A stretch of 53,907 nucleotides of DNA from an uncultured Eubacteriales bacterium. GTDB lineage: Bacteria > Bacillota > Clostridia > Oscillospirales > Acutalibacteraceae. The translations under genes were made by a program, and so were the position numbers. Where the stretch lies: contig CAZGXK010000001.1 in assembly GCA_964529775.1 (NCBI GenBank), forward strand, positions 1 to 53,907. Reading direction: 5' to 3'. Below are positions 40,144 through 52,930 of the stretch, piece by piece; position 1 is the stretch's first letter; each line of letters opens with the position of its first letter. A model generated the notes under the pieces. The model had not been told where the DNA came from. It made no database searches and saw only the letters and a list, made by a program, of their open reading frames with translations.

Positions 40144-41874
40144 CTACGCGGCGGACGGCTGGACCGGCTCGCTCTGCGGCGCCTCCTCGACGGCGATCGA
40201 CGTCACCGTGCAGAGCTCGTCCGGGGACTGCTCCCACGCCTCGGCGTCCGCCACCCGAAGGGTGACCGTGTCGCCTGGGGAGGCGAAGGGGAGCGCGGGC
40301 GAGAGCGAGAGGGAGGCGCGGTAGATGTGCGGGTCGTCTTGCAGACGCAGGTAGTAGTTGGTGGTGCCGTCGAGGACGGCGGTGGAGATCTCGGCGACGG
40401 TGCCGGAAACTTCTTTTGTTCCCGTCTCCCCCGGTGAGATGTCGTCGATGTCCTCCGACTGGGCGAGTTTCTCGCGGTAGGCGACGCTCGCCCCGCTCAC
40501 CGTGTCCCCGGTGCCCACGATTTGATACCGCTGCACATCCACAAAGGCGTACATCTTCACGAGCCCCGAGGCGTCTTTGAGGGACATGAAATAGGTGGGC
40601 CGGTCGGCCACGTTGAGCAGAAGCGGGAAGGTCGCCTGATAATTGAGGTGCTGCACCTGCCCCTCGGCCGAGGCCATCGCGGAATATTCCTCCGCGCCCG
40701 GCACGGTGTAGAAATGGGTCTCTTTGGTGCGCATATTCACCAGCACAAAGCCGATGTTGGATTCGTCCGCGGTGGCGGAGGTCATGCCGGTGTAGAGGTA
40801 GACGTCGTCGTTGTTCGCGATGTAGTTGTATCCCTCGGTGACGAGGCGCACGCCGCGCTGCCCGAAGTAGGCGTTGATGAAGCCGTCCTGGAACTGGCCG
40901 TTCCAATCCAGCTGCCGCACGATGAGGTCCGCGTCGAACACCCTGTCCACCCACTGCGGGATTTCCGCGAGCGTGTAATACTGGGATTCGCCGGTGATGG
41001 CGTTGCACAGTACCGCACCCTCCACATCGATGCCGCTCCACAGCGCGATGCGGTAGGTCATGGTGGGGGCGATCCAGTAGGGGGTGCCGGTGTCGTCGAC
41101 CTCAAACAGCACGTTGCCGAAAATTTTGGTGGGGTAGGCGAAACGCAGATGGCGCGAGATGTTGCGCAGGAACAGCTCGCTCTCGGAATAGCGGATCTGG
41201 CTGCCCTGCGGCAGGCGCACCAGAGTGGTCTCCTGAGTGGCCATATCCACGCTGATGTAGCCGGGGATGCCGGAGGACTGGTTGTTCCACCACTTGAAGA
41301 AATCGGCGTAGACGAGAGGGGTCACCCGCACGGGGCGGCCGTTGACGTTGATTTGGGTGTAGTCGTCGGAGATCTCAAACTGCGAGACGAGGTCCGGTAT
41401 GGTGCCGAGCTGGCGCTGGCCGAGCTGTTCCGCCATGTCTTTGTCCACCACAGGGATCTGGGACATCGAGAGCTCGGCGACCTCGGAGGCGAAATTGCCC
41501 TCGCTGATGGTGATCAAATCGCGGTAGGCGTTCGCGTGAAAGATCTCCGCCCCCGCCAGATCCCCCAGCAGCAGCACCGCGACAATCACGAGCGCCACGG
41601 CCGCCACCCGGAAGGGGGCGCGCTTTAAAAGGGCGCGTATGTCGGGGGCGTGAAAGGAGAAGGTGCCGTCCGCCGTGCCGGTGGCAACGCCGCGCAGGAA
41701 GCGGAGAATTTTGCCCGCCTCAAAGCACACCAGCCACACGATCAGCAGCGTGATCACAAACCGCCAGAAGAGCGGGGAGCGCAGATGGATGGGCGGCAGC
41801 GAGAACCAGTAGAAAAGAAAAGAGATGAGCAGAGCCGCCAGTGTGCTGAGGAGATACGAGACCGATTTTTTCAC
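40144..41874 (-). CDS. conserved membrane protein of unknown function (3 N-terminal TM helices plus a large extracytoplasmic domain)
   Basis: GTG start at 41874, 6 nt after AAAGGAGCG, 576 aa. Three hydrophobic helices are followed by about 430 aa of soluble domain. GC3-rich codon usage matches the neighbouring genes. Family not recognised. Confidence 0.75.
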   Translation of the reverse strand: MKKSVSYLLSTLAALLISFLFYWFSLPPIHLRSPLFWRFVITLLIVWLVCFEAGKILRFLRGVATGTADGTFSFHAPDIRALLKRAPFRVAAVALVIVAVLLLGDLAGAEIFHANAYRDLITISEGNFASEVAELSMSQIPVVDKDMAEQLGQRQLGTIPDLVSQFEISDDYTQINVNGRPVRVTPLVYADFFKWWNNQSSGIPGYISVDMATQETTLVRLPQGSQIRYSESELFLRNISRHLRFAYPTKIFGNVLFEVDDTGTPYWIAPTMTYRIALWSGIDVEGAVLCNAITGESQYYTLAEIPQWVDRVFDADLIVRQLDWNGQFQDGFINAYFGQRGVRLVTEGYNYIANNDDVYLYTGMTSATADESNIGFVLVNMRTKETHFYTVPGAEEYSAMASAEGQVQHLNYQATFPLLLNVADRPTYFMSLKDASGLVKMYAFVDVQRYQIVGTGDTVSGASVAYREKLAQSEDIDDISPGETGTKEVSGTVAEISTAVLDGTTNYYLRLQDDPHIYRASLSLSPALPFASPGDTVTLRVADAEAWEQSPDELCTVTSIAVEEAPQSEPVQPSAA

Positions 41875-41892: not shown

Positions 41893-41921
41893 TTGACAAT
41901 GCGGGAAAAGTGCGGTATACT
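41893..41921 (+). promoter_or_regulatory. promoter P1 (TTGACA-17 nt-TATACT)
   Basis: TTGACA at 41893-41898 and TATACT at 41916-41921. Reads rightwards, towards and antisense to the XRE gene. Confidence 0.65.
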
Positions 41922-41927
41922 TAATAA

Positions 41928-41941
41928 CGAACAAATGTTCT
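41928..41941. promoter_or_regulatory. LexA (Cheo/SOS) box 1
   Basis: CGAACAAATGTTCT matches the Gram-positive LexA consensus CGAACRNRYGTTYC at 13 of 14 positions. It begins 7 nt after the -10 of P1. Confidence 0.7.
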
Positions 41942-41963
41942 GTTAAGGGAGGCGAGCGGCGGC

Positions 41964-42152
41964 TTGGAGAAGGCAAAAGAGAGCGCGGTGCCGGACGGCG
42001 GAGAAGCGGACGGGTCGCGCCTGTCGGTGCTTGCGCGCGCCGTGGAAGACGCCGCGGGCGGATGTCCGGACGTCGCCGCGCGGATCATCGAGGCTCTGGT
42101 GAGGGATATCGGTCAATCGGCATCGAGCAGGGATTTGAGGCGGGAGAGGTAA
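41964..42152 (+). CDS. small hypothetical protein (62 aa), candidate SOS-induced factor
   Basis: TTG start 12 nt after AAGGGAGG. GC3-rich codons. Helical-looking sequence SRLSVLARAVEDAAGGCPDVAARIIEALVRDIG. Overlaps the 3' end of the convergent XRE gene by 40 nt. Coding status is uncertain. Confidence 0.35.
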   Translation: MEKAKESAVPDGGEADGSRLSVLARAVEDAAGGCPDVAARIIEALVRDIGQSASSRDLRRER

Positions 42153-42454
42153 TCGTCGAGCTGCTCCTGCGTGAGATCCTCCCCCTTTTTGAGAATTCCG
42201 TGTGAGCGGAACGCCTCGCTCAGCAGCGAGAGCGCGGTCGGCTCGTCCTCGCCGAGCAGCCACGCCGGCGTGACGCAGAGCGCGCGGGCGATCTTCTCCA
42301 GACGGTCCGCCGGTATCTTCGAGACGGTGCCTGCCTCATAGCGCTGAAGCACCGATTTGGCATAGCCTGTCCGCGCGGAGAGCTCGCCGAATGTCAGCCC
42401 CGCGGCCCGGCGCGCTTCTTTGAGCCGGGCGGGAATCGGCCGACTGTTCTCCAT
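42113..42454 (-). CDS. XRE/cI-type helix-turn-helix repressor (no S24 peptidase domain)
   Basis: Start at ATG 42454, 113 aa. IPARLKEARRAAGLTFGELSARTGYAKSVLQRYEAGTVSKIPADRLEKIARALCVTPAWLLG is a classical HTH_XRE, followed by a 45-aa tail only. Confidence 0.88.
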   Translation of the reverse strand: MENSRPIPARLKEARRAAGLTFGELSARTGYAKSVLQRYEAGTVSKIPADRLEKIARALCVTPAWLLGEDEPTALSLLSEAFRSHGILKKGEDLTQEQLDDYLSRLKSLLDAD

Positions 42455-42493
42455 GCTATTCACCGCCCCCGTGCGAAAATTCCCGTCCCTTTG

Positions 42494-42522
42494 ATTATAG
42501 CAAATGATGCCCGCTTTTTCAA
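42494..42522 (-). promoter_or_regulatory. promoter of the XRE repressor gene (TTGAAA-17 nt-TATAAT on the minus strand)
   Basis: The reverse complement reads TTGAAA (42522-42517), a 17-nt spacer, and TATAAT (42499-42494). It lies about 40 nt upstream of the XRE start and is divergent from P2. Confidence 0.7.
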
Positions 42523-42550
42523 CCGAAACGCAAAATTTTCCGAAAAGGGC

Positions 42551-42579
42551 TTGACAAAAAACGAAAAATGTGGTATAAT
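42551..42579 (+). promoter_or_regulatory. promoter P2 (TTGACA-17 nt-TATAAT with TG extension)
   Basis: TTGACA at 42551-42556, a spacer ending in TGTGG, and TATAAT at 42574-42579. The sequence is clearly paralogous to P1. Confidence 0.8.
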
Positions 42580-42585
42580 AAGGGA

Positions 42586-42599
42586 CGAACAAACGTTCT
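42586..42599. promoter_or_regulatory. LexA (Cheo/SOS) box 2
   Basis: CGAACAAACGTTCT differs from box 1 at a single position. It begins 7 nt after the -10 of P2, the same geometry as at P1. Confidence 0.72.
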
Positions 42600-43170
42600 T
42601 TATAGAGGACGGTCTCCCTCCGCTTCGGGCGGTCGCCGAAGGATATCCGGGGGCCCGGAAGGCGGACAAGAGGGGTTCGTCTGTTTCATGCGTCCCGAAA
42701 ACGGGACGGCATGGGAGAGAGAGGCACGAAAACCCAAGGGGGAAGTCCGCACGGATGCCGCTGATGAAGAGGAGCGCGGATTGAGTGTTCCGAAAATGGG
42801 ACAGCAGCGACGGGCCGGGCGGCGATGAGCCGAGGGCGAGGGGTATTCGCGCGGGCTTTGCCTTTCCCCGTGCTTTGAGGAATCCGAGCGGCCGAAGCGC
42901 GCGGGGCAGGGGGGAGAAGAGCGCTCCGTGCCCGATGCGGGCGGACTTTGCCCGGAAGGCCGCTGTTTGCATGGGAGTTTCGCGGATAACGGGACTCCCT
43001 TTGGGTGAGAACGGGGAAAGGCGGCGCTGCACACGGAGTGGCCGCTCCATACCCCAGGCGTTTGCGCCCCCCTGAACCCGCGGCGCGAAAGGCGCGGGCA
43101 GGGGGAAAAAAGAGGATATTTCAGAGAGACCATCGAGAATATTTTATCGGCGGTGTCCTCACACCACCGA
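42600..43170 (+). ncRNA. candidate large structured non-coding RNA or long structured leader (about 570 nt)
   Basis: No credible ORF in any frame; only R/G/P-rich shadow ORFs without an RBS. Many local hairpins: GTCCCG-AAAA-CGGGAC at 42692-42707, GTTCC-GAAAAT-GGGAC at 42787-42802, GGGAGT...ACTCCC at 42973-42999, and a long interrupted stem CCCCCTG..CCCGCG...CGCGGG.CAGGGGG at about 43060-43106. Class not established. Confidence 0.4.
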
Positions 43171-43183
43171 AAGAAAGGGGAGC

Positions 43184-43483
43184 ATGAGAATGATCTGCAA
43201 AGGCTGCGGGGAACGGTTGGAAGCCTGGGAGCTGGAGACGGTGAACGAATGGGTCTCGTACCGGGGAAGGGAGGTGCTGGTGCCGGTGGACACCCTCTGC
43301 CCGGTGTGCGGCGGCTCGGAGTTCGCACTGGAGGGGGAGTGCGCGGAGTGCGGGCGGATGACGGACGAAACGGCGCTGAGGGACGGGCTGTGCCCCGCCT
43401 GCGCGAGGGAGGCCGAGGAGATGTGGCGGGAGATGACCCCTGCGCAGCGAAAGTATCTGCTGGGGCTGGACGAAGGGGAATAG
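43184..43483 (+). CDS. small double zinc-ribbon protein (4 CxxC pairs)
   Basis: 99 aa after an AAAGGGGAG RBS. CKGC...CPVC and CAEC...CPAC. GC3-rich codons like the neighbouring genes. Confidence 0.65.
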   Translation: MRMICKGCGERLEAWELETVNEWVSYRGREVLVPVDTLCPVCGGSEFALEGECAECGRMTDETALRDGLCPACAREAEEMWREMTPAQRKYLLGLDEGE

Positions 43484-43954
43484 CGGACCGCTTTCGTGAT
43501 GCCGGTGCCGTTTCCCGTTTCCGATGACATCCGCCACGCGGGCGCGGCCGGGGCGCTTGAAGAATCTGCCGCTCCTGTCCTCGCCGGGGCCGTGGCGCGG
43601 ATGCTTCAGATCGGCGAATCGGCGCGGTGTTCCCGCAGGATTTTCCGGTTTGGGACGCGTGTGCCGCGGAGGGCGAGACAACCGCCGAGGACCACGGAGG
43701 CCCTCGCCATAAGGAAAAGGCACCTATTCTGACCCGTCTGTGGGGGCAGATACACGCCTGTGTGTGCTGCCTTCGGGGCAAAAGCGACGGACGGCCGCTC
43801 CCGGGGCGGGAGAAACCACAGACGCTGGACGGCCCGCTATTCGGCTTTGAGGGCACCGCCGGGCCGCTTCAAAAAGCGGCGGCCGTTCCGATGCCCGAAA
43901 ACGCGCGCCCGTGCCCCAGGGGAAGAGCACAGGGGTGAAAGGGGGAAAAGCACA

Positions 43955-44308
43955 TTGACGGACAAGCAGAAAAAATTTGCGGATGAATTTATCCGCCGGG
44001 GGGACGCGCGCGAGGCGTGGGTCGCCGCCGGGTTCAGCGGGCGCTCGGCGGAGACGTACATCCCCCGTGTGCTGGGCCGCGAGGATGTGGCGCAGTACAT
44101 CGAGAGCCGGCTCGGGGGGAGCAAGGACCCCGGCATCGCGGGCAGGACGGAGATTCTGCGGTATCTGACCCGCCTGTTGCGCGGCAGGGATACGGGGGAG
44201 CGGGAGCGCCTTCGGGCGGCGGAACTGCTCGGCAAGGGGTGCGGACTGTTCTCGGACAAGACGAGAGAGGAGAGTTCGGGAGTGACGATTGTGGATGATG
44301 TGCGATGA
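43955..44308 (+). CDS. phage terminase small subunit
   Basis: TTG start at 43955 after AAAGGGGGAAAAG, 117 aa. LTDKQKKFADEFIRRGDAREAWVAAGFSGRSAETYIPRVLGREDVAQYIESRL matches the Terminase_2-type HTH N-terminus. The stop overlaps the terL start (ATGA). Confidence 0.8.
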   Translation: MTDKQKKFADEFIRRGDAREAWVAAGFSGRSAETYIPRVLGREDVAQYIESRLGGSKDPGIAGRTEILRYLTRLLRGRDTGERERLRAAELLGKGCGLFSDKTREESSGVTIVDDVR

Positions 44309-45615
44309 ACGGGCGGACGGTGAGTCTGAGAGAGACGGTAGGGTCGGGCTACGGGGCGTTTTGGCGGTGGCGCGGGCGGTACCGCGCGGTGAAGGGCGGC
44401 CGCGCCTCCAAGAAGAGCTGCACGACGGCGCTGTGGCTGATTGTGAACATCATGCGGATGCGGGGGGCGAACGCGCTGGTGGTGCGCAGGACCTACCGCA
44501 GCCTGCGGGACAGCTGCTATGCCCAGCTGCGCTGGGCGATTCACCGCTTGCGCGCGGACGCGTGGTGGAGCGCCAGGGAGAACCCTCTGGAACTCGTCTA
44601 CAGGCCGACGGGGCAGCGCATCGCTTTCCGGGGCCTGGACGACCCCCTGAAGGTCTCCTCCATCGCGGTGGAGACGGGCAGCTTGTGCTGGCTGTGGGTG
44701 GAGGAGGCGTACGAGATCGCGAGCGAGAGCGATTTCGACACGCTGGACGAGGCGATACGCGGAGAGGTCGCGCCGCCGCTCTTCAAGCAGACGACGCTGA
44801 CTTTTAACCCGTGGAGCGGGCGGCACTGGCTGAAGGGCCGGTTTTTCGACCGGAAAAGCCCGGACGTGCTGGCGATGACGACCGATTACCGCTGCAACGA
44901 GTGGCTGGACGACGCCGACCGCGCGATGTTCCGGCGTATGGAGCGCGAAAACCCGCGTCGGTACCGGGTGGCCGGGCTCGGCGAATGGGGGATGGCGGAG
45001 GGGCTTGTCTACGACGACTGGGAGGTGGCGCCGTTTGACGTGCGGGAACTGCTCACGGGCGAGGGCGGAGAGGAAATCCGCTGCGTGTACGGGCTGGATT
45101 ACGGGTACAGCAACGACCCGACGGCGTTTATCGCGGCGGCGGCGGACGGGCGGCGCAGGAGGCTGTATATTTTCGACGAGTTCGTGGGCGCGCGCATGGT
45201 GAACAGCGAGATTGCGCGGATGATTGTGCGTAAGGGCTATCAGAAGGAGCGCATCCGGGCGGACAGCGCGGAGCCGAAGAGCAACGAGGAACTGAGGCGG
45301 CTGGGCATTTCGCGGATCACCCCCGCGCCGAAGGGGCGGGACAGCGTGCTCTACGGCATCTCGGCGCTGAGGGAATACCACATGGTGGTGCATCCCCGGT
45401 GCCGCAACACCATAGCGGAGCTTGCGAGCTACGCCTGGGAGACGCAGAGGGACGGCACCGGCGTCAACCGGCCGGCGGACCGCGACAATCACCTGATGGA
45501 CGCGCTGCGCTACGCGATGGCCGACGCGAAAAGAGGATGCCGGGCGGAGCAGTGGAGCGCGGGGCTCTTCGAGAGCGGGATCACCGCGCGCGACCTGCTT
45601 GGGAGCCGGACGTGA
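44305..45615 (+). CDS. phage terminase large subunit (PBSX-like)
   Basis: 436 aa. Walker-A-like VKGGRASKKS, Walker-B-like LCWLWVEEA, and a C-terminal nuclease region (YGLDYGYSNDPTAF, DRDNHLMDALRYA). Confidence 0.88.
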   Translation: MNGRTVSLRETVGSGYGAFWRWRGRYRAVKGGRASKKSCTTALWLIVNIMRMRGANALVVRRTYRSLRDSCYAQLRWAIHRLRADAWWSARENPLELVYRPTGQRIAFRGLDDPLKVSSIAVETGSLCWLWVEEAYEIASESDFDTLDEAIRGEVAPPLFKQTTLTFNPWSGRHWLKGRFFDRKSPDVLAMTTDYRCNEWLDDADRAMFRRMERENPRRYRVAGLGEWGMAEGLVYDDWEVAPFDVRELLTGEGGEEIRCVYGLDYGYSNDPTAFIAAAADGRRRRLYIFDEFVGARMVNSEIARMIVRKGYQKERIRADSAEPKSNEELRRLGISRITPAPKGRDSVLYGISALREYHMVVHPRCRNTIAELASYAWETQRDGTGVNRPADRDNHLMDALRYAMADAKRGCRAEQWSAGLFESGITARDLLGSRT

Positions 45616-45636
45616 CAAAAGAAGGAGGAAGGCCGA

Positions 45637-45816
45637 ATGAAGGTGGCGATACTGGCGGCGATGTTTTTGCTGACGGGCGGCGGCGCGCTGCTGGCGCGGA
45701 GAGCGCGCGGGCGGCGGAAAAGGGCGGTTCCCCCGCCGGGGGAGCCGAGCCGCGAAGAGCGGTATATGATGAATTTCCTGCGGTATGACGGCACGCCGCA
45801 GGAGGAGGTGAGATGA
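45637..45816 (+). CDS. small membrane protein (59 aa), hypothetical
   Basis: Not in the track because it is under 60 aa. GAAGGAGGAAGG RBS, then ATG 45637: MKVAILAAMFLLTGGGALLARRARGRRKR... The stop at 45814-45816 overlaps the portal ATG at 45813. Confidence 0.5.
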   Translation: MKVAILAAMFLLTGGGALLARRARGRRKRAVPPPGEPSREERYMMNFLRYDGTPQEEVR

Positions 45817-47402
45817 TGGACGGCAGGGCGAGGGAGATTTTCCGGGAGTACGACGAGGGGGTGAGGTACAAGGCGTCGCTCGGGGAGCTGGGGCTTGTGG
45901 AGCAGGGGAAGCGAAACGAGCGGTTTTACCTGGGCGATCAGTGGCACGGGGCGCAGTGCGGCGGAGAGCGTCCGCTGGTGCGGTACAACGTGATCAAGCG
46001 GATCGGCGACTACAAGACGGCGATGGTGAGCGGCGCGCCGATGCGGGTGAGCTATTACGCCGAGGGGGAACCCGACGGGGACGGGCGGGGCGGGACGCCG
46101 TCTTCCGGCTCGGGAGAACGGAATGTGGCGGAGGCGCTGGGGGATTTATCCGCCTATTTTGACGCGAGTGCGCAGAGACTGGGGCTTGACGAGATGCGCG
46201 AGAGGGTGCTGCGCGACGCGTTTATCCGGGGCACCGCGTTTCTCTACACCTACTGGGATTCGGACGTGCCCACCGGGTTGTATGCCGACGCCGGGCGAAC
46301 CGTGCCGGTGCGCGGGGACATCGCCTGCGAGACGCTGGACATCGAGCAGGTGACGATGGGCGATCCCGGGCAGGAGGACATCCAAAAGCAGCCGTACCTG
46401 CTGATCTCTCAGCGCCTTCCCCTCGCCCGGGTGAGAGAGCGGGCGGAAGAATACGGGCTGCCCCCGGCGCGGAGGGACGCTATCCGCCCGGACGCGCCGT
46501 CTTCCCCCGCGGGGGACGGCGGGACGGCGACCGTGGTCACCCGTCTTTGGAAAACCGGGCGCGGGGACGGCGTGCGGGTGATGGCCGCGCAGGCGACCAG
46601 GGAGGTAATGCTGAGGGAGCCGTGGAATCTCGGGATTCGCCGCTACCCCTTAAGCGTGTTTCGCTGGGAGTGCGGACAGGGTCTCGCCTACGGGGAGAGC
46701 GAGGTGACGCATCTCATCCCGAACCAGATCGCGATCAACCGTCTGCTCACCGCGAACGTGTGGGCGGGCATGATGACGGGGGCACCGATCACCGTGGTGA
46801 ACGGGGACGTGGTGCAGGGGCCGGTGACCAACGACCCCGGTCAGGTGCTGAAAGTGTTCGGCTCGGCGGAGGAGGTCGGCGGCGCCGTCCGCTATGTCTC
46901 CCCTCCGGACACCTCCTCGGGGCTGCTGCGCACCGTCGCCTCTCTGATTGGGGACACCCTCTCGAACGCGGGGGCGAACGAGGCGGCGCTCGGGGATGTG
47001 AAGGCGGAAAACGCCGCCGCGATTCTCGCGCTTCAGGAGGCGGCGTCGCTGCCGCTGCAATCGGTACAGCGCCGTTTCACCCGTTTTATGCGGGACGTCG
47101 CCCTCACCTGGGCGGAGTTCTGGGTGATGACCTACGGCGCGAGGCCCCTGAGGGTCGGCGGCCGGTACCGGCCGTTTGACGGCAGGCTCTACCGCGATTT
47201 GGTGCTGCGCGCGAGAGTGGAGGTGACGGGCTCGCCCCTGTGGGCGCGCTCTCAGATGCAGGCGGCGTTGGATAAGCTGCTGGACGGCGGCTGGATTGGC
47301 GGGGCGGACTATATCGCCCACCTGCCGGGGTGCGCTCTGCCGGGGCAGCGGGAGCTGTTGCGGACGCTGAGGGAGAAAGAAGGCAAGGAGGTCAGGGCAT
47401 GA
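45813..47402 (+). CDS. phage portal protein
   Basis: 529 aa directly after terL. N-terminal NERFYLGDQW-type segment, plus size and position typical of SPP1-like portals. Confidence 0.78.
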   Translation: MMDGRAREIFREYDEGVRYKASLGELGLVEQGKRNERFYLGDQWHGAQCGGERPLVRYNVIKRIGDYKTAMVSGAPMRVSYYAEGEPDGDGRGGTPSSGSGERNVAEALGDLSAYFDASAQRLGLDEMRERVLRDAFIRGTAFLYTYWDSDVPTGLYADAGRTVPVRGDIACETLDIEQVTMGDPGQEDIQKQPYLLISQRLPLARVRERAEEYGLPPARRDAIRPDAPSSPAGDGGTATVVTRLWKTGRGDGVRVMAAQATREVMLREPWNLGIRRYPLSVFRWECGQGLAYGESEVTHLIPNQIAINRLLTANVWAGMMTGAPITVVNGDVVQGPVTNDPGQVLKVFGSAEEVGGAVRYVSPPDTSSGLLRTVASLIGDTLSNAGANEAALGDVKAENAAAILALQEAASLPLQSVQRRFTRFMRDVALTWAEFWVMTYGARPLRVGGRYRPFDGRLYRDLVLRARVEVTGSPLWARSQMQAALDKLLDGGWIGGADYIAHLPGCALPGQRELLRTLREKEGKEVRA

Positions 47403-48115
47403 AGGCGAAGGACGAGACGCCGAAAGAGGCTTTGCGGGCGGATCCGCCCCGGGAGGCCGGAGAGGCCGGGCGGGAGGAAAGCGGAGAGGAGGAATGGTAT
47501 CTGCCGGTGTACAACGGGGAGGTTCGCCCGGTGCGCCGGACCGAGCGGGAGGAGATCACCGCTCTCCTGCAGCTCGGGATGAAGCAGAGGGATTTTCTGC
47601 CGGAGTACGAACTGCTCCGGGAAATGGCGGAGGACGAGGGGGTCACGGTGCGCGAGTGGGTGCGGGACCGCGCCGACCGGCACGAGAAGGCGCTGCTGAG
47701 CGACGCCGTGGAGAAGTACGGAGAGCGGGACGGCACGGCGTTTTACGAGATGCACAGGCAGAGCCGTCTCGCCCGCTGCCGTGAGCAGGAGGAGAGGGAG
47801 AAGGCGCGCGAGATGAGCGAAAAACAGCGGGAGGCATCCCGTTGGCAGAGCGAGTTTGCCGAGCTCAAAGAGGCGGTGCCGCGCTTTGAGACGCCGGAAG
47901 ATGTGCCTTTGCAGGTGAAGAATCTCGCGCTCGCCCGCGGTATTCCGCTGCTGGACGCGTACCACCGATTCGCGTTTGACGAGCGGCGCCGGGCGATGGA
48001 GGAGAAGTTTGAGGAGGAGATGGCGAGGGCGCTTTCGACCGGACCGCTTTCCGCCACCGAACGGGGCGGACCGGACAGCGCCAGAGAGGCTTTTTTGCGG
48101 GGATTATCCCTGTGA
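47399..48115 (+). CDS. phage scaffolding protein (acidic, helical)
   Basis: ATG at 47399 overlaps the portal stop. 238 aa, very rich in E/R/A and coiled-coil-like. Located between portal and capsid. Confidence 0.6.
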   Translation: MKAKDETPKEALRADPPREAGEAGREESGEEEWYLPVYNGEVRPVRRTEREEITALLQLGMKQRDFLPEYELLREMAEDEGVTVREWVRDRADRHEKALLSDAVEKYGERDGTAFYEMHRQSRLARCREQEEREKAREMSEKQREASRWQSEFAELKEAVPRFETPEDVPLQVKNLALARGIPLLDAYHRFAFDERRRAMEEKFEEEMARALSTGPLSATERGGPDSAREAFLRGLSL

Positions 48116-48198
48116 GAGAAGGCTTTGAAACTGCCGCGCGCCCGAGGGCGCGGTCACGCGGGCCGGGGGCGCGGCCGACATATGAAGGAGGAGAGCTT

Positions 48199-49107
48199 AT
48201 GGCTATCAACACGTTATCGTTTCGCGAGGAGATGTCGGGAGAACTGGAGCGCGCGGTACAGCGCGGGGCGGTCGTCGGGTTTTTCGAGGACAACCCGCTG
48301 CGCGCGAAATTTGTGGGCGCGAAGACGGTGCTCATCCCGGAGATGGGGCTGAGCGGACTGGGGGATTACGACCGCGACAACGGCTTTGTGCGGGGGGCGA
48401 TCACCGTCACGAGCGAGCCGTACGAGCTTAAGCAGGACCGCGCACGCACGTTCCAGCTGGACCGGGAGGACAACGACGAGACGGGCATCGCCTCGCTCGC
48501 CGGTCAGGTGCTGGGAGAGTTTGTGCGCACCAAGGTGGTGCCGGAGGTGGACGCCTACTGCCTCTCGAAAATCGGTGGGTACGCCGTCTCGGAGGAGCAG
48601 ACGGTGACCGGAGCCCCGCAGACCGAGGCGTATGCGATGTTCCAGACCGCTCTGGGACAGGCGCAGGAGAACGTGGGGTTTGACGAGGAGATCGTCTGCT
48701 TTGTGAGCGGAGATTTCCTGCGGGCTCTGCAGAGTTCCCCGGAGATCGCGAGGCAAATCGGCATCTCGGATTTTCGCAAGGGGGACGTGAACCTGCAGGT
48801 GAAATCGCTCGACGGGGTGGCGCTGCTGCCGGTGCCCGCCTCGCGCATGAAGACGTCGTTCACCTTTGATTCCGGCGCGGACGGGGACGAGGGGGGATTC
48901 CACCCCGACCCGAGCGCGAAATCCATCGGATTTTTGCTCTGTCCGAAGCGCGCGGCGTCGCTTGTGAAGAAGAGCGAGACGGTGAGGGTGTTTACCCCGG
49001 AGCAGAACATCAAGGCGGACGCCTGGAAATTCGATTACCGGCTGTACTACGACGTGTTTCTGAAGAACAGTCTGAAGCCGGGCATCCGCGCCTATGTGAC
49101 CGAGTGA
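48199..49107 (+). CDS. phage major capsid protein
   Basis: ATG at 48199 after a GAAGGAGGAG RBS, 302 aa. The size, position after the scaffold and overall sequence character are capsid-like. The fold was not verified. Confidence 0.7.
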   Translation: MAINTLSFREEMSGELERAVQRGAVVGFFEDNPLRAKFVGAKTVLIPEMGLSGLGDYDRDNGFVRGAITVTSEPYELKQDRARTFQLDREDNDETGIASLAGQVLGEFVRTKVVPEVDAYCLSKIGGYAVSEEQTVTGAPQTEAYAMFQTALGQAQENVGFDEEIVCFVSGDFLRALQSSPEIARQIGISDFRKGDVNLQVKSLDGVALLPVPASRMKTSFTFDSGADGDEGGFHPDPSAKSIGFLLCPKRAASLVKKSETVRVFTPEQNIKADAWKFDYRLYYDVFLKNSLKPGIRAYVTE

Positions 49108-49136
49108 AAAAACCGAAAACGGGGAGGAGAGACGTG

Positions 49137-49910
49137 ATGGAGATACTCGAGAGCGCGCTTGTCTTTCGCGACAACCACACCCTGCGCGGAAAAGCGCCCG
49201 CCGGGATTGTGCTGCACCACGCGGCGGGGACCGGCAGCGTGGAGGACGTGCACCGCTGGCACCTGCAAAACGGCTGGGCGGGCATCGGCTACCATTTTTA
49301 CGTGCGGCGGGACGGCAAGGTCTACCGCGGGCGGCCGGAAGAGTGGACGGGCGCACACGCCGTCGGCGCGAACGACCAGCTCGGCATCTGCGCCGAGGGC
49401 AATTTTGAGCGGGAGCGGATGAAACCGGCGCAAAAGCAGGCGATCGCCGAACTTGTCCGGGCGCTGAGGCGGAAATACGGGGCGCTCGCGTGTCACCGGC
49501 ACAGCGAGTACGGCAGCACCGCCTGCCCGGGGAGATATTTTCCGTTTGAGGAAATTGTGCGCGAGGGCGCGGGGGACGGCGCGGCGGCGAAGGACGCGAA
49601 TCTTGTGAAACGCTTTCAGAGCGCCTGCCTCGCGGACGGCATCCCCCTGCCGGTCTACGGCGCGGACGGCGTCTGGGAACGCGAGACCGAGGGCGCCGCG
49701 AGGCACGCGGTGGCGAGCGGGAGCCGGGGAGAGAGAGTGCGGCTGGCGCAGCAGGTCTGCATGGAGGCGAAAATCGGTCTGCCGTGCGGCGCGGACGGGA
49801 TTTTCGGCGCACACACGGCGGCCGCCGTGCGCGAGTTCCAAAAGCAAAAGGGACTGGTCATCGACGGGATTGCGGGGATAAAGACGTGGAAAGCGATGCT
49901 GGGGGTGTGA
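49137..49910 (+). CDS. N-acetylmuramoyl-L-alanine amidase (PGRP/Amidase_2) with C-terminal peptidoglycan-binding domain; endolysin
   Basis: IVLHHAAG, GWAGIGYHFYVRRDG, GAHAVGANDQ and STACPG motifs. C-terminus GADGIFGAHTAAAVREFQKQKGLVIDGIAGIKTW is PG_binding_1-like. ATG at 49137 follows GGAGGAG. Confidence 0.88.
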   Translation: MEILESALVFRDNHTLRGKAPAGIVLHHAAGTGSVEDVHRWHLQNGWAGIGYHFYVRRDGKVYRGRPEEWTGAHAVGANDQLGICAEGNFERERMKPAQKQAIAELVRALRRKYGALACHRHSEYGSTACPGRYFPFEEIVREGAGDGAAAKDANLVKRFQSACLADGIPLPVYGADGVWERETEGAARHAVASGSRGERVRLAQQVCMEAKIGLPCGADGIFGAHTAAAVREFQKQKGLVIDGIAGIKTWKAMLGV

Positions 49911-50191
49911 TGATGGCGGCGACACATGAGGCGCTGACACTCTCCCGGGAGAACGAGAGGCGGCTGACGGCGGTGGAGGAGCAGATGCAGACGCTGCAGG
50001 AGCTGTCGCGCACGGCCGCGGTGACCGAGAGCCTTGTGGCAAATTTGCGGGAGGACGTCCGCTCTATCCGGCGGGCGGTGGACGCGCTGACGGAAAAACC
50101 GGCCAGGCGCGCGGACGCGGTGGCGGCCGCCGTCTTGGGGGCGATCGCTTCCGGGGCGGTGTGCACCGCGCTGGGGATGCTGGTGCGGTGA
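49910..50191 (+). CDS. XhlA-like protein (coiled coil plus C-terminal TM)
   Basis: 93 aa. The ATG overlaps the amidase stop. Heptad-like N-terminus (LTAVEEQMQTLQEL...) and C-terminal helix AVAAAVLGAIASGAVCTALGMLV. This is the architecture of PBSX XhlA. Confidence 0.55.
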   Translation: MMAATHEALTLSRENERRLTAVEEQMQTLQELSRTAAVTESLVANLREDVRSIRRAVDALTEKPARRADAVAAAVLGAIASGAVCTALGMLVR

Positions 50192-50208
50192 CGGGAAAAG
50201 GGGGAGAA

Positions 50209-50427
50209 ATGATGCGCAAAGAGATCGGGGCGTGGCTGAGGGCGGCGGGAATCCGCGCGATCAAAACGGTGGCGCAGACGGCGGCGGCGAGCGTCGGCAC
50301 GGCGGTGCTGCTGGAATCGGTCGACTGGCTTGCGGTGGTTTCGGCGTCGCTGCTCGCGGGGATTCTGAGCCTGCTGACGAGCCTTGCGGGGCTGCCGGAA
50401 TTGGACGGCGGGGAGGCCAAACGGTGA
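50209..50427 (+). CDS. phage holin (r1t-type, two TM helices)
   Basis: 72 aa from ATG 50209 (AAGGGGGAG RBS). IRAIKTVAQTAAASVGTAVLLESVDWLAVVSASLLAGILSLLTSLAGLPE resembles r1t-family holins. Confidence 0.7.
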   Translation: MMRKEIGAWLRAAGIRAIKTVAQTAAASVGTAVLLESVDWLAVVSASLLAGILSLLTSLAGLPELDGGEAKR

Positions 50428-50780
50428 AGACGGGGGAAGAGCTGTGGAACCGGGCGCTGCGGCTGCTCCACTACGCGGATATCCGGAGGATGGACGGCGG
50501 GGAGGAGACGGCGCTGGCGATCATCAATCAGGTGGTGAGCGACCTGTGGTACGGCACCCGGGAGGGAGATTTTTCCCCTCTCTCGGAGCTGTCCGACCCG
50601 CTGCCGCTGACGGGAAGGCTGGTTGAGGACGTGATGCCGTACGGCGTGGCGATGCTGCTCTCGCAGAATCTGGGGGACGCGGACAGCCAGGCGCTGTTTG
50701 CCTCCCTCTACAATCAAAAACGCGCGCGGATGCGGGGCGGGGAAAGCCGTCTGGACGTGATGCCGCGCGGCGGGATGTGA
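50424..50780 (+). CDS. hypothetical protein (118 aa)
   Basis: GTG at 50424 overlaps the holin stop. GC3-rich codons. No family recognised. Confidence 0.5.
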   Translation: MKTGEELWNRALRLLHYADIRRMDGGEETALAIINQVVSDLWYGTREGDFSPLSELSDPLPLTGRLVEDVMPYGVAMLLSQNLGDADSQALFASLYNQKRARMRGGESRLDVMPRGGM

Positions 50781-50791
50781 GGAGGGAGATC

Positions 50792-52771
50792 ATGCGGTTT
50801 CCGGCGATGAAACGGGGGTTGCGGGCCGGCACCGCCACTCCGGCGCTCACCGGCGGGGCGCGCAAGGGGGTGCCGCGCGGGGAGATCGGCAGCGGTCAGC
50901 TCGCCGAGGCGCAAAACGTCTGCTATTGCGGGGAGACGCTGGTGAGCCGCCCGTGCTTTCGCGCGCGGGGGACGGCGGACGGGTGCGGGGGAGAGCTTCT
51001 CTCGGTGCGCGGCGGCATCTCTTTCGAGGGAGAGGCGGCATCGGTGATGCTCTTTCGCACCGGCGTCGGGGTGACGCTGCGGGTTATCGCCGGGGACGGG
51101 CGGGCGCTCGGGGCGTACACGCTCGCGGGGTGCGACGGCGGCGCGGCGGTGCCGGGGGTGGAGGAGCCGTTTTTGTTCTTCACCGGGCGGCGCGTCTATG
51201 TGCCGGGGGATGGCGAGCTTTTGCCGATGCCGGGGGAAAGACTCACCGTCCCGACGGTGCTCGTGAACGCGAGGCCCTACGGCGAGCGGGAGCAGGGCGT
51301 ACCGGCGGACGGGCATCTCCCCCCGCGGGGGGAGATGGCGCAGGCGCTCAACCGCTACTGCCCGCGCTACCGCTGCCTCTTCACGACCACGGGGGACGGG
51401 GAAAACCTCTTTGAGGTGATGGTGCTGCCGACTCCCGTCCCGCAGAGCGAGGAGGTGAAGCTGACCTACTTCGCCGAGGACGGGGAGTACACGGCGGTGT
51501 TCCCGGCGGGGAGCGAGGGGCCCGTGATTCTGCAGAGGGGCGAAAAGACGCTGGGGGGCGAAATCCGTCTGGTGCGGGAAAAGGGTTATGCGGTCACCCA
51601 TTTTTCGCTGCCGGCGGGAGGGGAAAACAACCTGTGCATCGAGGCGGGCTATGAGGCGGAGGACGCAGATCCCCCGGGCTTCGGGATGTGGCTGCCCGGT
51701 CAGAACGGCGGGGCGAGGCTGTTCCTCGGCGGCTACCGGGGGCAGCCCGCCGCCGTGCGGTGGAGCGAGACGGACGATCCCGGGTATTTTGCCGAGAGCG
51801 GCGTGCGCGCCGTGGGGCAGGCGGGGGAACCCGTCACCGCTTTCGGCAGGCAATCGGATATGCTGGCGGTTTTCAAGAGAGGCTCCACCCACTGTCTGAC
51901 CTACGCCGACCGCGAGACCGCCGGTTCCGGGGAGCGGGACAGGCAGGCGCGGGGCATTGCGCTCTCCACCCGCACCGTCTCCCCGTCGGTCGGGTGCGAC
52001 TGCCCGGACACGGTCGCGCTGTGCGAGGGGAAGCTGGTCTGGATGACCTCCGACGCCCGGGTGCACGCGCTGGTGACGGCCAGCGCGCACAGCAACCGCA
52101 ACGTGGTGGACGTGGGGGAAAACATCGCCCCCGCGATTCTCGGGCGCAGCGGCGTTTCGGAGAGGAGGGCGGCGAGCGCGCGGTCCGCTCCGGAAGGGTA
52201 CGCGCTGGCGGTGGCGGGGCGAATCTATCTGTTGAAGACCTCCGATCTCGCCTTTCGGAATCTCTCGTACTACTACCGGCAGAAAACGCTGGAAGAACAC
52301 CTGACGTGGGTGGAATGGACGCTGCCGGACGGGTGCGAAAACGCTTTTCTGCTGCCCGGCAGCGAGGTGACTCTCGGCCTCATCCGGGAGGGGACGCTCG
52401 CCGTCTACGCGGCGGGGGAACCTCTTTTCGGGGAGGGAGGCGAGCTGCGCGACGAGATCCCCGGCGAAGCGGGGGAGACCAGCCGGGTGGTCGCCTGTGT
52501 GGAGACGCGCGAGATGCCCCTCGGTTCCCGCTCGCAGACGGCGCGCGTGACGTCGGTCGCGCTGGAGGGGGAGTGCGAAGGGGCGACGGCGACCCCGATA
52601 ACCGACGGGCGGGAGCGGGAGCCGCAGACCTTCGCGCTGCGGGGGAGGCACACGGTGGTCCTCCCGGAAATGCCTCTGTGCCACCGCGCGGGCGTGCGGC
52701 TTCAGAGCGGGATGCCGCTGCGGTTTTTGGGGGCGGAAATTCTGTTCTCGCCGCGCGCGCACCTCGGATGA
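50792..52771 (+). CDS. hypothetical large protein (659 aa), possibly a virion or tail-proximal component
   Basis: ATG at 50792 after GAGGAGGGA (alternative GTG 50777). Long uninterrupted GC3-rich ORF that looks beta-rich. No recognisable motifs. Last gene before tRNA-Lys. Confidence 0.6.
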   Translation: MRFPAMKRGLRAGTATPALTGGARKGVPRGEIGSGQLAEAQNVCYCGETLVSRPCFRARGTADGCGGELLSVRGGISFEGEAASVMLFRTGVGVTLRVIAGDGRALGAYTLAGCDGGAAVPGVEEPFLFFTGRRVYVPGDGELLPMPGERLTVPTVLVNARPYGEREQGVPADGHLPPRGEMAQALNRYCPRYRCLFTTTGDGENLFEVMVLPTPVPQSEEVKLTYFAEDGEYTAVFPAGSEGPVILQRGEKTLGGEIRLVREKGYAVTHFSLPAGGENNLCIEAGYEAEDADPPGFGMWLPGQNGGARLFLGGYRGQPAAVRWSETDDPGYFAESGVRAVGQAGEPVTAFGRQSDMLAVFKRGSTHCLTYADRETAGSGERDRQARGIALSTRTVSPSVGCDCPDTVALCEGKLVWMTSDARVHALVTASAHSNRNVVDVGENIAPAILGRSGVSERRAASARSAPEGYALAVAGRIYLLKTSDLAFRNLSYYYRQKTLEEHLTWVEWTLPDGCENAFLLPGSEVTLGLIREGTLAVYAAGEPLFGEGGELRDEIPGEAGETSRVVACVETREMPLGSRSQTARVTSVALEGECEGATATPITDGREREPQTFALRGRHTVVLPEMPLCHRAGVRLQSGMPLRFLGAEILFSPRAHLG

Positions 52772-52854: not shown

Positions 52855-52930
52855 GATCCATTAGCTCAGTCGGCAGAGCACCTGACTTTTAATCAGGGTG
52901 TCCGGGGTTCGAATCCCCGATGGATCACCA
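52855..52930 (+). tRNA. tRNA-Lys (anticodon TTT)
   Basis: 76 nt folded by hand. Acceptor GATCCAT/ATGGATC, D arm GCTC-AGTCGGCA-GAGC, anticodon arm CCTGA-CTTTTAA-TCAGG, T arm CGGGG-TTCGAAT-CCCCG and encoded CCA. Confidence 0.93.

Follow-up and report, generated by a model that had tools for sequence, protein, structure and literature searches.

Extended arbitrium modules (AimX-AimC-AimL) are known from the Bacillus phages phi106 and BMBtp14, where the AimC repressors are helix-turn-helix (HTH) proteins of 80-140 aa that have no cleavage domain and oligomerise through a C-terminal helical domain (Kabel et al., bioRxiv 10.1101/2025.11.23.689978; PDB 9iaq). AimX is a small helical protein whose gene lies directly beside aimC in the opposite direction; in phi106 its open reading frame (ORF) comes directly after a LexA site and shares 30 bp with the end of aimC (bioRxiv 10.1101/2025.11.23.689978). 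The AimX transcript covers aimC in antisense, yet recoded and stop-codon alleles of AimX demonstrated that the protein, not the RNA, relieves repression, and AimX binds AimC at its C-terminal domain, blocking oligomerisation (bioRxiv 10.1101/2025.11.23.689978). Here we describe a comparable arrangement in a stretch of 53,907 nucleotides from an uncultured Eubacteriales bacterium (contig CAZGXK010000001.1; "the window" below), in which a 62-codon frame, ORF62, follows a LexA-boxed promoter and runs into the end of a gene for an XRE-type repressor, called XRE hereafter. By analogy with the Bacillus phages, ORF62-XRE is most likely a new example of this known switch, now in a gut bacterium. The elements of the locus are the following.

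41893..41921, forward strand: promoter P1, with -35 TTGACA (41893-41898), a 17-nt spacer and -10 TATACT (41916-41921); 11/12 consensus matches
41928..41941, unstranded: LexA box 1, Cheo-type, CGAACAAATGTTCT, covering the expected P1 transcription start
41945..41952, forward strand: Shine-Dalgarno (SD) sequence AAGGGAGG, 11 nt ahead of a TTG start
41964..42152, forward strand: ORF62, a 62-aa candidate antirepressor, with TTG at 41964 and the stop codon TAA at 42150-42152
42113..42152, both strands: convergent coding overlap of ORF62 and XRE, 40 nt, coordinates checked
42113..42454, reverse strand: XRE repressor gene, 113 aa, HTH plus helix-loop-helix tail, from HTH Pfam matches and an AlphaFold2 (AF2) model
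42494..42522, reverse strand: XRE promoter (Pxre), TTGAAA, 17-nt spacer, TATAAT, extended TG; 11/12 consensus matches, divergent from P2
42551..42599, forward strand: promoter P2 (12/12; promoter proper 42551-42579) with LexA box 2, CGAACAAACGTTCT, at 42586-42599, heading the capsid/lysis operon

These coordinates bear out the order of signals given by an earlier, sequence-only reading of the window, namely P1 with its LexA box, then an SD and a 62-codon frame with a TTG start, as well as the overlap of the last 40 nt of that frame with the 3' end of XRE. The spacing from ribosome-binding site to start, which had been put at 12 nt, measures 11 nt.

Set beside AimX-AimC, the window agrees in several respects. 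Like AimC, XRE is a short HTH repressor that lacks an autocleavage domain and has, in its structure model, a C-terminal helical tail, and this model aligns to AimC chains over 106-112 columns. ORF62, like AimX, is small and mostly helical as predicted; it runs convergently to the repressor gene, whose end it overlaps (40 nt in the window, 30 bp in phi106). In both phi106 and the window the small ORF follows a LexA site and its transcript runs, or here would run, antisense through the repressor gene, and the lytic promoter is divergent from the repressor gene in both systems. They differ in that neither aimR nor aimP lies upstream in the window, where a host membrane gene stands 18 nt from P1 instead; in that no cro-like gene follows P2; and in that an 11-kb capsid/lysis island with a second LexA box, not a full phage, appears to be controlled. 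Instead of a Bacillus, the host belongs to a gut Firmicute order and has a small genome at 65% GC. In a comparison that covered the repressors, no sequence similarity between XRE and AimC was seen beyond the HTH, the likeness being structural.

Tum of coliphage 186 is a LexA-controlled small antirepressor. The same is true of GfoA/GfhA of the Gifsy prophages (PMC3121763) and of Sar of the SPbeta-like phages, where SroF has an integrase fold (bioRxiv 10.1101/2025.11.27.690993). As we propose for the window, the repressor in these systems is left uncleaved and a small protein encoded behind a LexA box inactivates it by binding, which ties induction to SOS. Unlike ORF62, their genes are neither convergent with the repressor gene nor overlapping it, the repressor families differ, and no sequence relation to ORF62 was detected, which has no Pfam or PHROG match.

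A further comparison is offered by SinR of B. subtilis (PDB 1b0n), which like XRE is an XRE-type repressor, of ~111 aa, composed of an HTH and a two-helix C-terminal domain; among solved structures it is the best HTH sequence match to XRE and also a full-length Foldseek match. Its antagonist SinI (~57 aa) is, as ORF62 is predicted to be, a two-helix protein, and binds the SinR C-terminal domain. The sinI gene lies upstream of sinR and is co-directional with it. SinR-SinI is unlike the window in being neither SOS-controlled nor phage-borne; the SinI Pfam domain is absent from both XRE and ORF62 (E up to 10), and ORF62 bears no similarity to the XRE tail.

Coding signature of ORF62 and structure of XRE

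At 65% GC, chance can be expected to leave a frame of 62 codons open, and its length alone is uninformative. We scored the 49 non-overlapping codons of ORF62 with this genome's codon table and obtained a codon log-likelihood of 0.40 bits/codon, which is the top of the six frames by a wide margin and was reached by 0 of 5000 dinucleotide shuffles. For comparison, XRE scores 0.41 and terS 0.37, while the non-coding leader of P2 attains a maximum of 0.18. GC content at the three codon positions (0.78, 0.51 and 0.80) likewise follows the pattern of real genes in this genome. This codon-usage signal is not chance, and ORF62 is probably a real small protein gene.

The AF2 single-sequence model of ORF62 (predicted local distance difference test score, pLDDT, 82) has two helices, at residues 13-31 and 35-61, predicted to be amphipathic; the protein has 12 acidic and 10 basic residues and a grand average of hydropathicity (GRAVY) of -0.42. 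With these properties ORF62 does not fit an SOS-induced type I toxin resembling TisB or DinQ, which would be a small hydrophobic membrane peptide. We also considered that the region might be the decayed S24 domain of a formerly longer repressor, for which no similarity was found, and that ORF62 might mimic the XRE tail, following the logic of SinI; BLASTP and profile-profile comparisons of ORF62 and its family with the tail returned nothing.

The facing repressor matches the Pfam families HTH_31 and HTH_3 at E ~3e-11 and no other domain. It has no S24 domain, as the sequence-only reading had stated, and no S24 remnant lies downstream of its gene. A self-cleaving repressor of the CI/LexA type was thus set aside for this locus; HTH+S24 repressors do occur in more distant relatives of the island. 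In the AF2 model (pLDDT 83), a five-helix HTH is followed by a tail whose helices, at 74-84 and 96-111, flank a conserved loop; pLDDT is ~80 across this helix-loop-helix, and the loop-helix motif recurs in homologues. Foldseek returned full-length matches of the model to SinR (1b0n_A, from the SinR/SinI complex) and to AimC (9iaq chains), aligned over 105-112 columns at E 1.4e-3 to 3.2e-3 with template modelling (TM) scores of 0.50-0.55, and by sequence, at E up to 0.01, XRE matched SinR and 434 Cro among PDB entries and not AimC.

Close homologues of XRE were absent from a genome-contig scan, and a word-indexed protein search gave only XRE itself. Scans of IMG/VR yielded no match with XRE and, with the XRE of locus L093, matches without the tail; among deposited phage genomes the best XRE matches cover the HTH only, the single match at 80% coverage being an XRE-ImmA pair. 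JGI metagenome scans with XRE and with ORF62 gave no match.

Recurrence of the convergent gene pair

Searches covered 400 family genomes with the whole XRE and 400 order genomes with a profile of its tail, followed by searches with a small-ORF profile. A tail-bearing XRE is encoded at nine loci, and at 7/9 of these the 3' end of XRE is overlapped by a small ORF that is convergent with it and has an SD ahead of its start, as against 1/25 XRE loci without the tail that have such an ORF; the pairing is given as these counts, without a statistical test, and kin loci among them are not independent. The seven paired loci (the window, L093, L100, L116, L117, L119 and L127) span at least three families of the order. 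Their small ORFs have 41-62 codons and overlap XRE by 33-114 nt, and at four of the seven (the window, L093, L100 and L116) a Cheo box lies between promoter and SD. Six of these small ORFs have already been called genes in public protein sets, none with a family name. Integrase, Bro-N or HSDR_N genes lie upstream at related loci, and a search of deposited phage genomes with the small ORFs gave no match.

BLASTP alone did not detect a relationship among the small ORFs. A leave-one-out profile test, scored against shuffles, was run on the non-overlapping N-terminal parts, a restriction that removes the mirror effect of the conserved tail. By this test, p is at or below 0.0005 for L100, L116 and L119, about 0.02 for L093 and L117, and 0.0145 for ORF62; by profile (p 0.82) the small ORF and XRE of L104 lie outside this family, and that locus is not counted as a member. 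ORF62 and the L093 ORF agree at five of their first seven residues, and both frames have non-ATG starts. We consider the membership of ORF62 in this small-ORF family probable. Homologous small ORFs elsewhere have GTG starts and SD spacings of 8-11 nt, and three further homologues combine a GTG start with the 11-nt spacing seen in ORF62. The sequence-only reading had called its own ORF weak; that doubt is eased by the GTG starts and 8-11 nt spacings of the relatives.

The same unit of promoter, box, SD and small ORF faces a homologous XRE in unrelated elements that have no island, which speaks for P1, ORF62 and XRE moving as a single cassette. Isoelectric points (pI) in the small-ORF family span 4.1 to 9.9, and the idea of a DNA mimic was dropped on this ground.

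In genus g171, loci L126, L130 and L131 encode 53-aa homologues of the small ORF (at 1498-1659) with a GTG start, an SD spacing of 11 nt and a LexA-like box, GAACAAATGTAC, within the promoter spacer; no XRE gene adjoins them. These homologues may be trans-acting antirepressors, judging from their arrangement. Short XRE homologues at L095, L098 and L139 are followed directly by a co-directional gene for an ImmA/IrrE-type HEXXH protease, which occupies the spot of the convergent small ORF in the tail-bearing subfamily. The ImmR-ImmA pairs answer the same problem as the one posed by the window, that of inactivating an XRE repressor without S24, and some XRE homologues are indeed paired with a protease; unlike those pairs, with their HEXXH metalloprotease, the window has no protease gene beside XRE and a convergent small ORF there.

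P1, its LexA box and its transcript

A sigma-70 consensus scan finds three sites of P1's grade in 3.5 kb, against 0.6 expected. LexA box 1 begins 6 nt past the P1 -10, the same distance that separates LexA box 2 from the P2 -10, and matches the Firmicute consensus CGAAC-N4-GTTCG at 13/14 positions. Only two promoter-associated Cheo boxes exist genome-wide, box 1 among them. The window's genome has a lexA gene, and the lexA promoters of ten genus members (L075-L084) carry a palindrome that shares the core AACAAATGTT with the box; it reads CAAAC-N4-GTTTG, lies at the -35 and is accompanied by a second element, CGAACAAAC, in the leader. Among relatives of terL, 13 of the 20 upstream regions inspected have a box ~0.9 kb ahead of terL, and family elements related to the island have a LexA box at the promoter equivalent to P2. 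Sister islands in genomes G011, G001 and G007 have one promoter with two or three such boxes and no XRE gene, and several terL-related elements combine a divergent HTH+S24 repressor with a different palindrome, the likely operator of that repressor. The box is thus conserved independently of the resident repressor, which points to a host factor, and we infer on good grounds that LexA binds both boxes.

Near-identical palindromes lie on either side of the XRE gene, and the genome's own recA and lexA promoters carry no good copy. Both observations would suit boxes that are operators of XRE, or of another factor encoded by the element, with P1 caught in an autoregulatory loop unrelated to SOS. 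The same boxes recur, however, in sister elements without any XRE gene, relatives with CI-like repressors have a different palindrome beside the box as the likely CI operator, and both the 13/14 agreement with the Firmicute LexA consensus and the core in common with the genus lexA promoters speak for LexA. We regard operators of an element-encoded factor as very improbable.

Six distant terL-related elements (L057, L060, L065, L073, L058 and L061) encode an HTH+S24 repressor and have a LexA box at the divergent promoter, with TTGCA-N4-TGCAA palindromes on both sides of that promoter. By its layout this arrangement would amount to double SOS control via two cleavable repressors.

P1 and P2 together form a 50-nt direct repeat of 74% identity, and P1 has a 10-nt spacer word in common with the promoter of G001. 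Judging by these resemblances, P1 may either have come with the ORF62-XRE cassette or be a copy of the island's promoter. The repeat and the spacer word would also suit an evolutionary leftover, in which P1 is a duplicated or stranded SOS promoter of the island, left on the upstream side when the XRE cassette inserted into the leader, and ORF62 a decaying fragment or chance frame that has no function. Further points that fit are the sister elements of G001, G011 and G007, with one such promoter, two or three boxes and no XRE; the leader of G007, which also holds a foreign minus-strand gene; and the chance expectation of a 62-codon frame at this GC. Such decay is, however, at odds with a codon signal at the level of real genes, with the occurrence of the promoter-box-SD-small ORF unit opposite homologous XRE genes in unrelated, island-free elements, and with a second strain in which the frame is undisrupted. 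A functionless remnant is, in our estimation, improbable.

Besides an antirepressor, the sequence-only reading had proposed an antisense role for the P1 transcript. Taken on its own, this would mean that a LexA-controlled P1 transcript lowers XRE, through convergent interference with Pxre or pairing with its mRNA, and reads into the P2 operon, ORF62 being untranslated or inert. A consensus scan of the forward strand found no terminator-like site from P1 to P2, and the imperfect hairpin with U5 at ~42141-42195, after the ORF62 stop, does not fold above shuffles (z -0.9), in agreement with the earlier statement that no terminator precedes the XRE coding region; lacking one, P1 firing must be accompanied by antisense transcription of all 342 nt of the XRE gene. 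P1 and Pxre are nearly equal by consensus (11/12 each), the 3' overlap is kept in 7/7 loci, and the start signals of ORF62 are weak (TTG, 11-nt spacing), with no BLAST homologue of the frame. A search of sequencing runs turned up no RNA run that contains this locus.

A precedent for an RNA of this kind is lambda OOP, which is antisense to the cII 3' end and has a LexA binding sequence in the oop-pO region. There, as here, a promoter is convergent with the gene of a lysogeny regulator and its transcript overlaps the 3' end of that gene; unlike the window, which has no terminator and an ORF with a coding signature, OOP is short, terminated and non-coding. A discrete cis-antisense RNA of the OOP type was rejected for the window, where no terminator-like site was found and the hairpin with U5 is no better than shuffles.

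A pure RNA element would have no need of the coding signature that the frame shows, nor would its relatives be expected to retain an SD and a start codon before an open frame of like size. In the closest characterised system, AimX-AimC, the recoded overlap and the stop-codon allele showed pairing to be dispensable and the protein necessary, and stable structure in the P1 transcript is not above shuffles (z -1.2). We hold an RNA-only function to be unlikely. Antisense transcription itself is physically unavoidable without a terminator; none of the tests made here speaks for it as the working mechanism, and precedent favours the protein.

A LexA-only switch proposed for the capsid/lysis island

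Our favoured model, to which we assign a little better than an even chance, is that ORF62 is an arbitrium-less, LexA-only small antirepressor of XRE. In an undamaged cell LexA would occupy the boxes at P1 and P2, and XRE, which lacks an autocleavage domain, would act as a second lock on the capsid/lysis operon, its repression of P2 being suggested by position only. DNA damage would lead to self-cleavage of LexA, P1 would fire, and ORF62 would be made, though at a low translation rate on account of the TTG start and the SD spacing of 11 nt. The two-helix ORF62 would then bind the helix-loop-helix tail of XRE and block oligomerisation and DNA binding, so that P2 opens fully. With one box at P1 and another at P2, LexA would act on the operon both directly and via ORF62/XRE, in a coherent feed-forward loop that would require sustained SOS before the lysis genes are expressed, as a persistence filter. 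The P1 transcript would also cross XRE in antisense and probably continue into the P2 operon, most likely as a minor second layer.

Complex prediction for XRE with ORF62 lends weak support: the score of 0.42, against 0.00 for the best control, lies in a range in which a pass is wrong more often than it is correct. The mark was reached by 51/78 solved complexes and 2/108 mismatched pairs; with a score of 0.60 or less it was reached by only 5 of those 78 solved complexes and by each of the 4 mismatches that passed. Agreement between runs is at least 91% of contacts, and the pLDDT of the partner is at least 62.

Besides that score range, several observations weigh against our model. ORF62 has no significant homologue, and BLASTP against the related small ORFs was empty; tblastn of 200 family genomes gave no match, the best hit (E 0.015) lying inside large unrelated frames; phmmer against 1.84 billion representatives returned only four long, repetitive, multi-stretch compositional matches; and the best ESM Atlas score, 0.78, is under the recognition value typical of known families. 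The profile similarity of ORF62 to the small-ORF family is modest (p 0.0145) and rests on ~49 residues, and the C-terminal likeness among the small ORFs partly mirrors the conserved XRE tail on the opposite strand. In a second strain (run X2) the count of changes within ORF62 is 0 where ~0.8 would be expected, too few for selection on the frame to be measurable. The tail-bearing XRE of L103 has no small ORF. As for the regulators, LexA binding rests on resemblance to relatives and to the Firmicute consensus, and at the lexA and recA promoters of the window's own genome the copies are degenerate and no good box is present, the one at lexA (G000 contig C41 1-490) being half-conserved at an AT-rich contig end. 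XRE's operator site and its presumed control of P2 are both assigned by position.

ORF62 might also be a real partner protein of the XRE subfamily with another role, such as a co-regulator, a helper in excision or replication, or a superinfection or immunity factor. The comparative evidence gives linkage and not the direction of effect, no common surface property is evident in a family whose pI runs from 4.1 to 9.9, and the g171 homologues have no adjoining XRE. Set against this, LexA boxes at 4/7 loci would time expression to induction; the ImmA-type protease, a known repressor-inactivating partner, has its gene in the same downstream place in some XRE homologues, though co-directional; and the AimX precedent, together with the weak pass in complex prediction, favours an antirepressor. 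We judge such another role fairly unlikely.

Taken together, a protein antirepressor ranks first, above all of these rivals, at somewhat better than even probability. Of the two roles put forward by the sequence-only reading it is the better one, having gained the coding signature, the recurring convergent ORFs, a profile similarity at p ~0.015, the weak complex pass and the AimX-AimC precedent, all of which support it indirectly.

The genes that the switch would govern, and the flank of the island, are as follows.

42600..52771, forward strand: downstream operon, comprising leader, Zn-ribbon, terS, terL, portal, major capsid, amidase endolysin, holin-like gene and two orphan ORFs (Pfam, PHROG)
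40147-41874, reverse strand: gene for a 576-aa membrane protein, a conserved host gene on the left flank

The operon begins with an untranslated P2 leader of ~580 nt and ends before a tRNA-Lys at 52855. In the second strain X2 the leader (42600-43183) differs by five small indels and nine substitutions, as against five substitutions in the 1.2 kb to its left; by these indels the leader is non-coding, and it is fast-evolving. The host membrane gene was found in 26/61 relatives, with 62-68% identity within the genus. Its start codon is only 18 nt from the -35 of P1, and in relatives it has its own TTGCAA-17-TATACT promoter. Because of this closeness, this gene must here depend either on a weak minus-strand promoter that overlaps the LexA box or on Pxre transcripts reading through ORF62.

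The 11-kb island (41893-52771) occupies the same chromosomal site, beside the membrane protein gene, in G011 (L054) and lies one or two genes away in G001 (L056); another related island is L055, in G007. Relatives of terL were found in 83/401 family genomes. TerL identity is 65-66%, close to the 62-68% of the host membrane protein, and because of this agreement the island looks, from sequence comparison, like a vertically inherited, LexA-controlled, phage-tail-less element resembling a gene-transfer agent. In L055 a minus-strand gene for a zinc-ribbon membrane protein (699-1470) lies between the SOS promoter and the Zn-ribbon gene. Because L055, too, has a minus-strand gene after its SOS promoter, SOS-driven antisense read-through of an inserted gene appears to recur in this element family.

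A broader and more tentative proposal, which we think possible though doubtful, is that an unannotated, widespread, arbitrium-free immunity cassette of gut Firmicute prophages combines a LexA box and a small ORF with an XRE gene that is convergent and tail-bearing. It would be the ancestral core to which AimR/AimP signalling was added later in Bacillus phages, co-opted here as an SOS-persistence lock on a vertically inherited, tail-less island of the gene-transfer-agent type.

If the antirepressor model is true, the switch of the Bacillus arbitrium phages exists outside Bacillus, without peptide signalling and with LexA as its sole input. This would widen the range of the mechanism and would suggest that arbitrium modules arose when a receptor joined an existing LexA-antirepressor-repressor core. 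ORFs of 40-60 residues that gene callers find and databases leave undescribed receive a name and a test, and the model would explain how a lysis-causing, capsid-only island with a non-cleavable repressor responds to DNA damage. Predictors of prophage induction that seek only S24 domains or ImmA proteases would overlook such elements in gut metagenomes.

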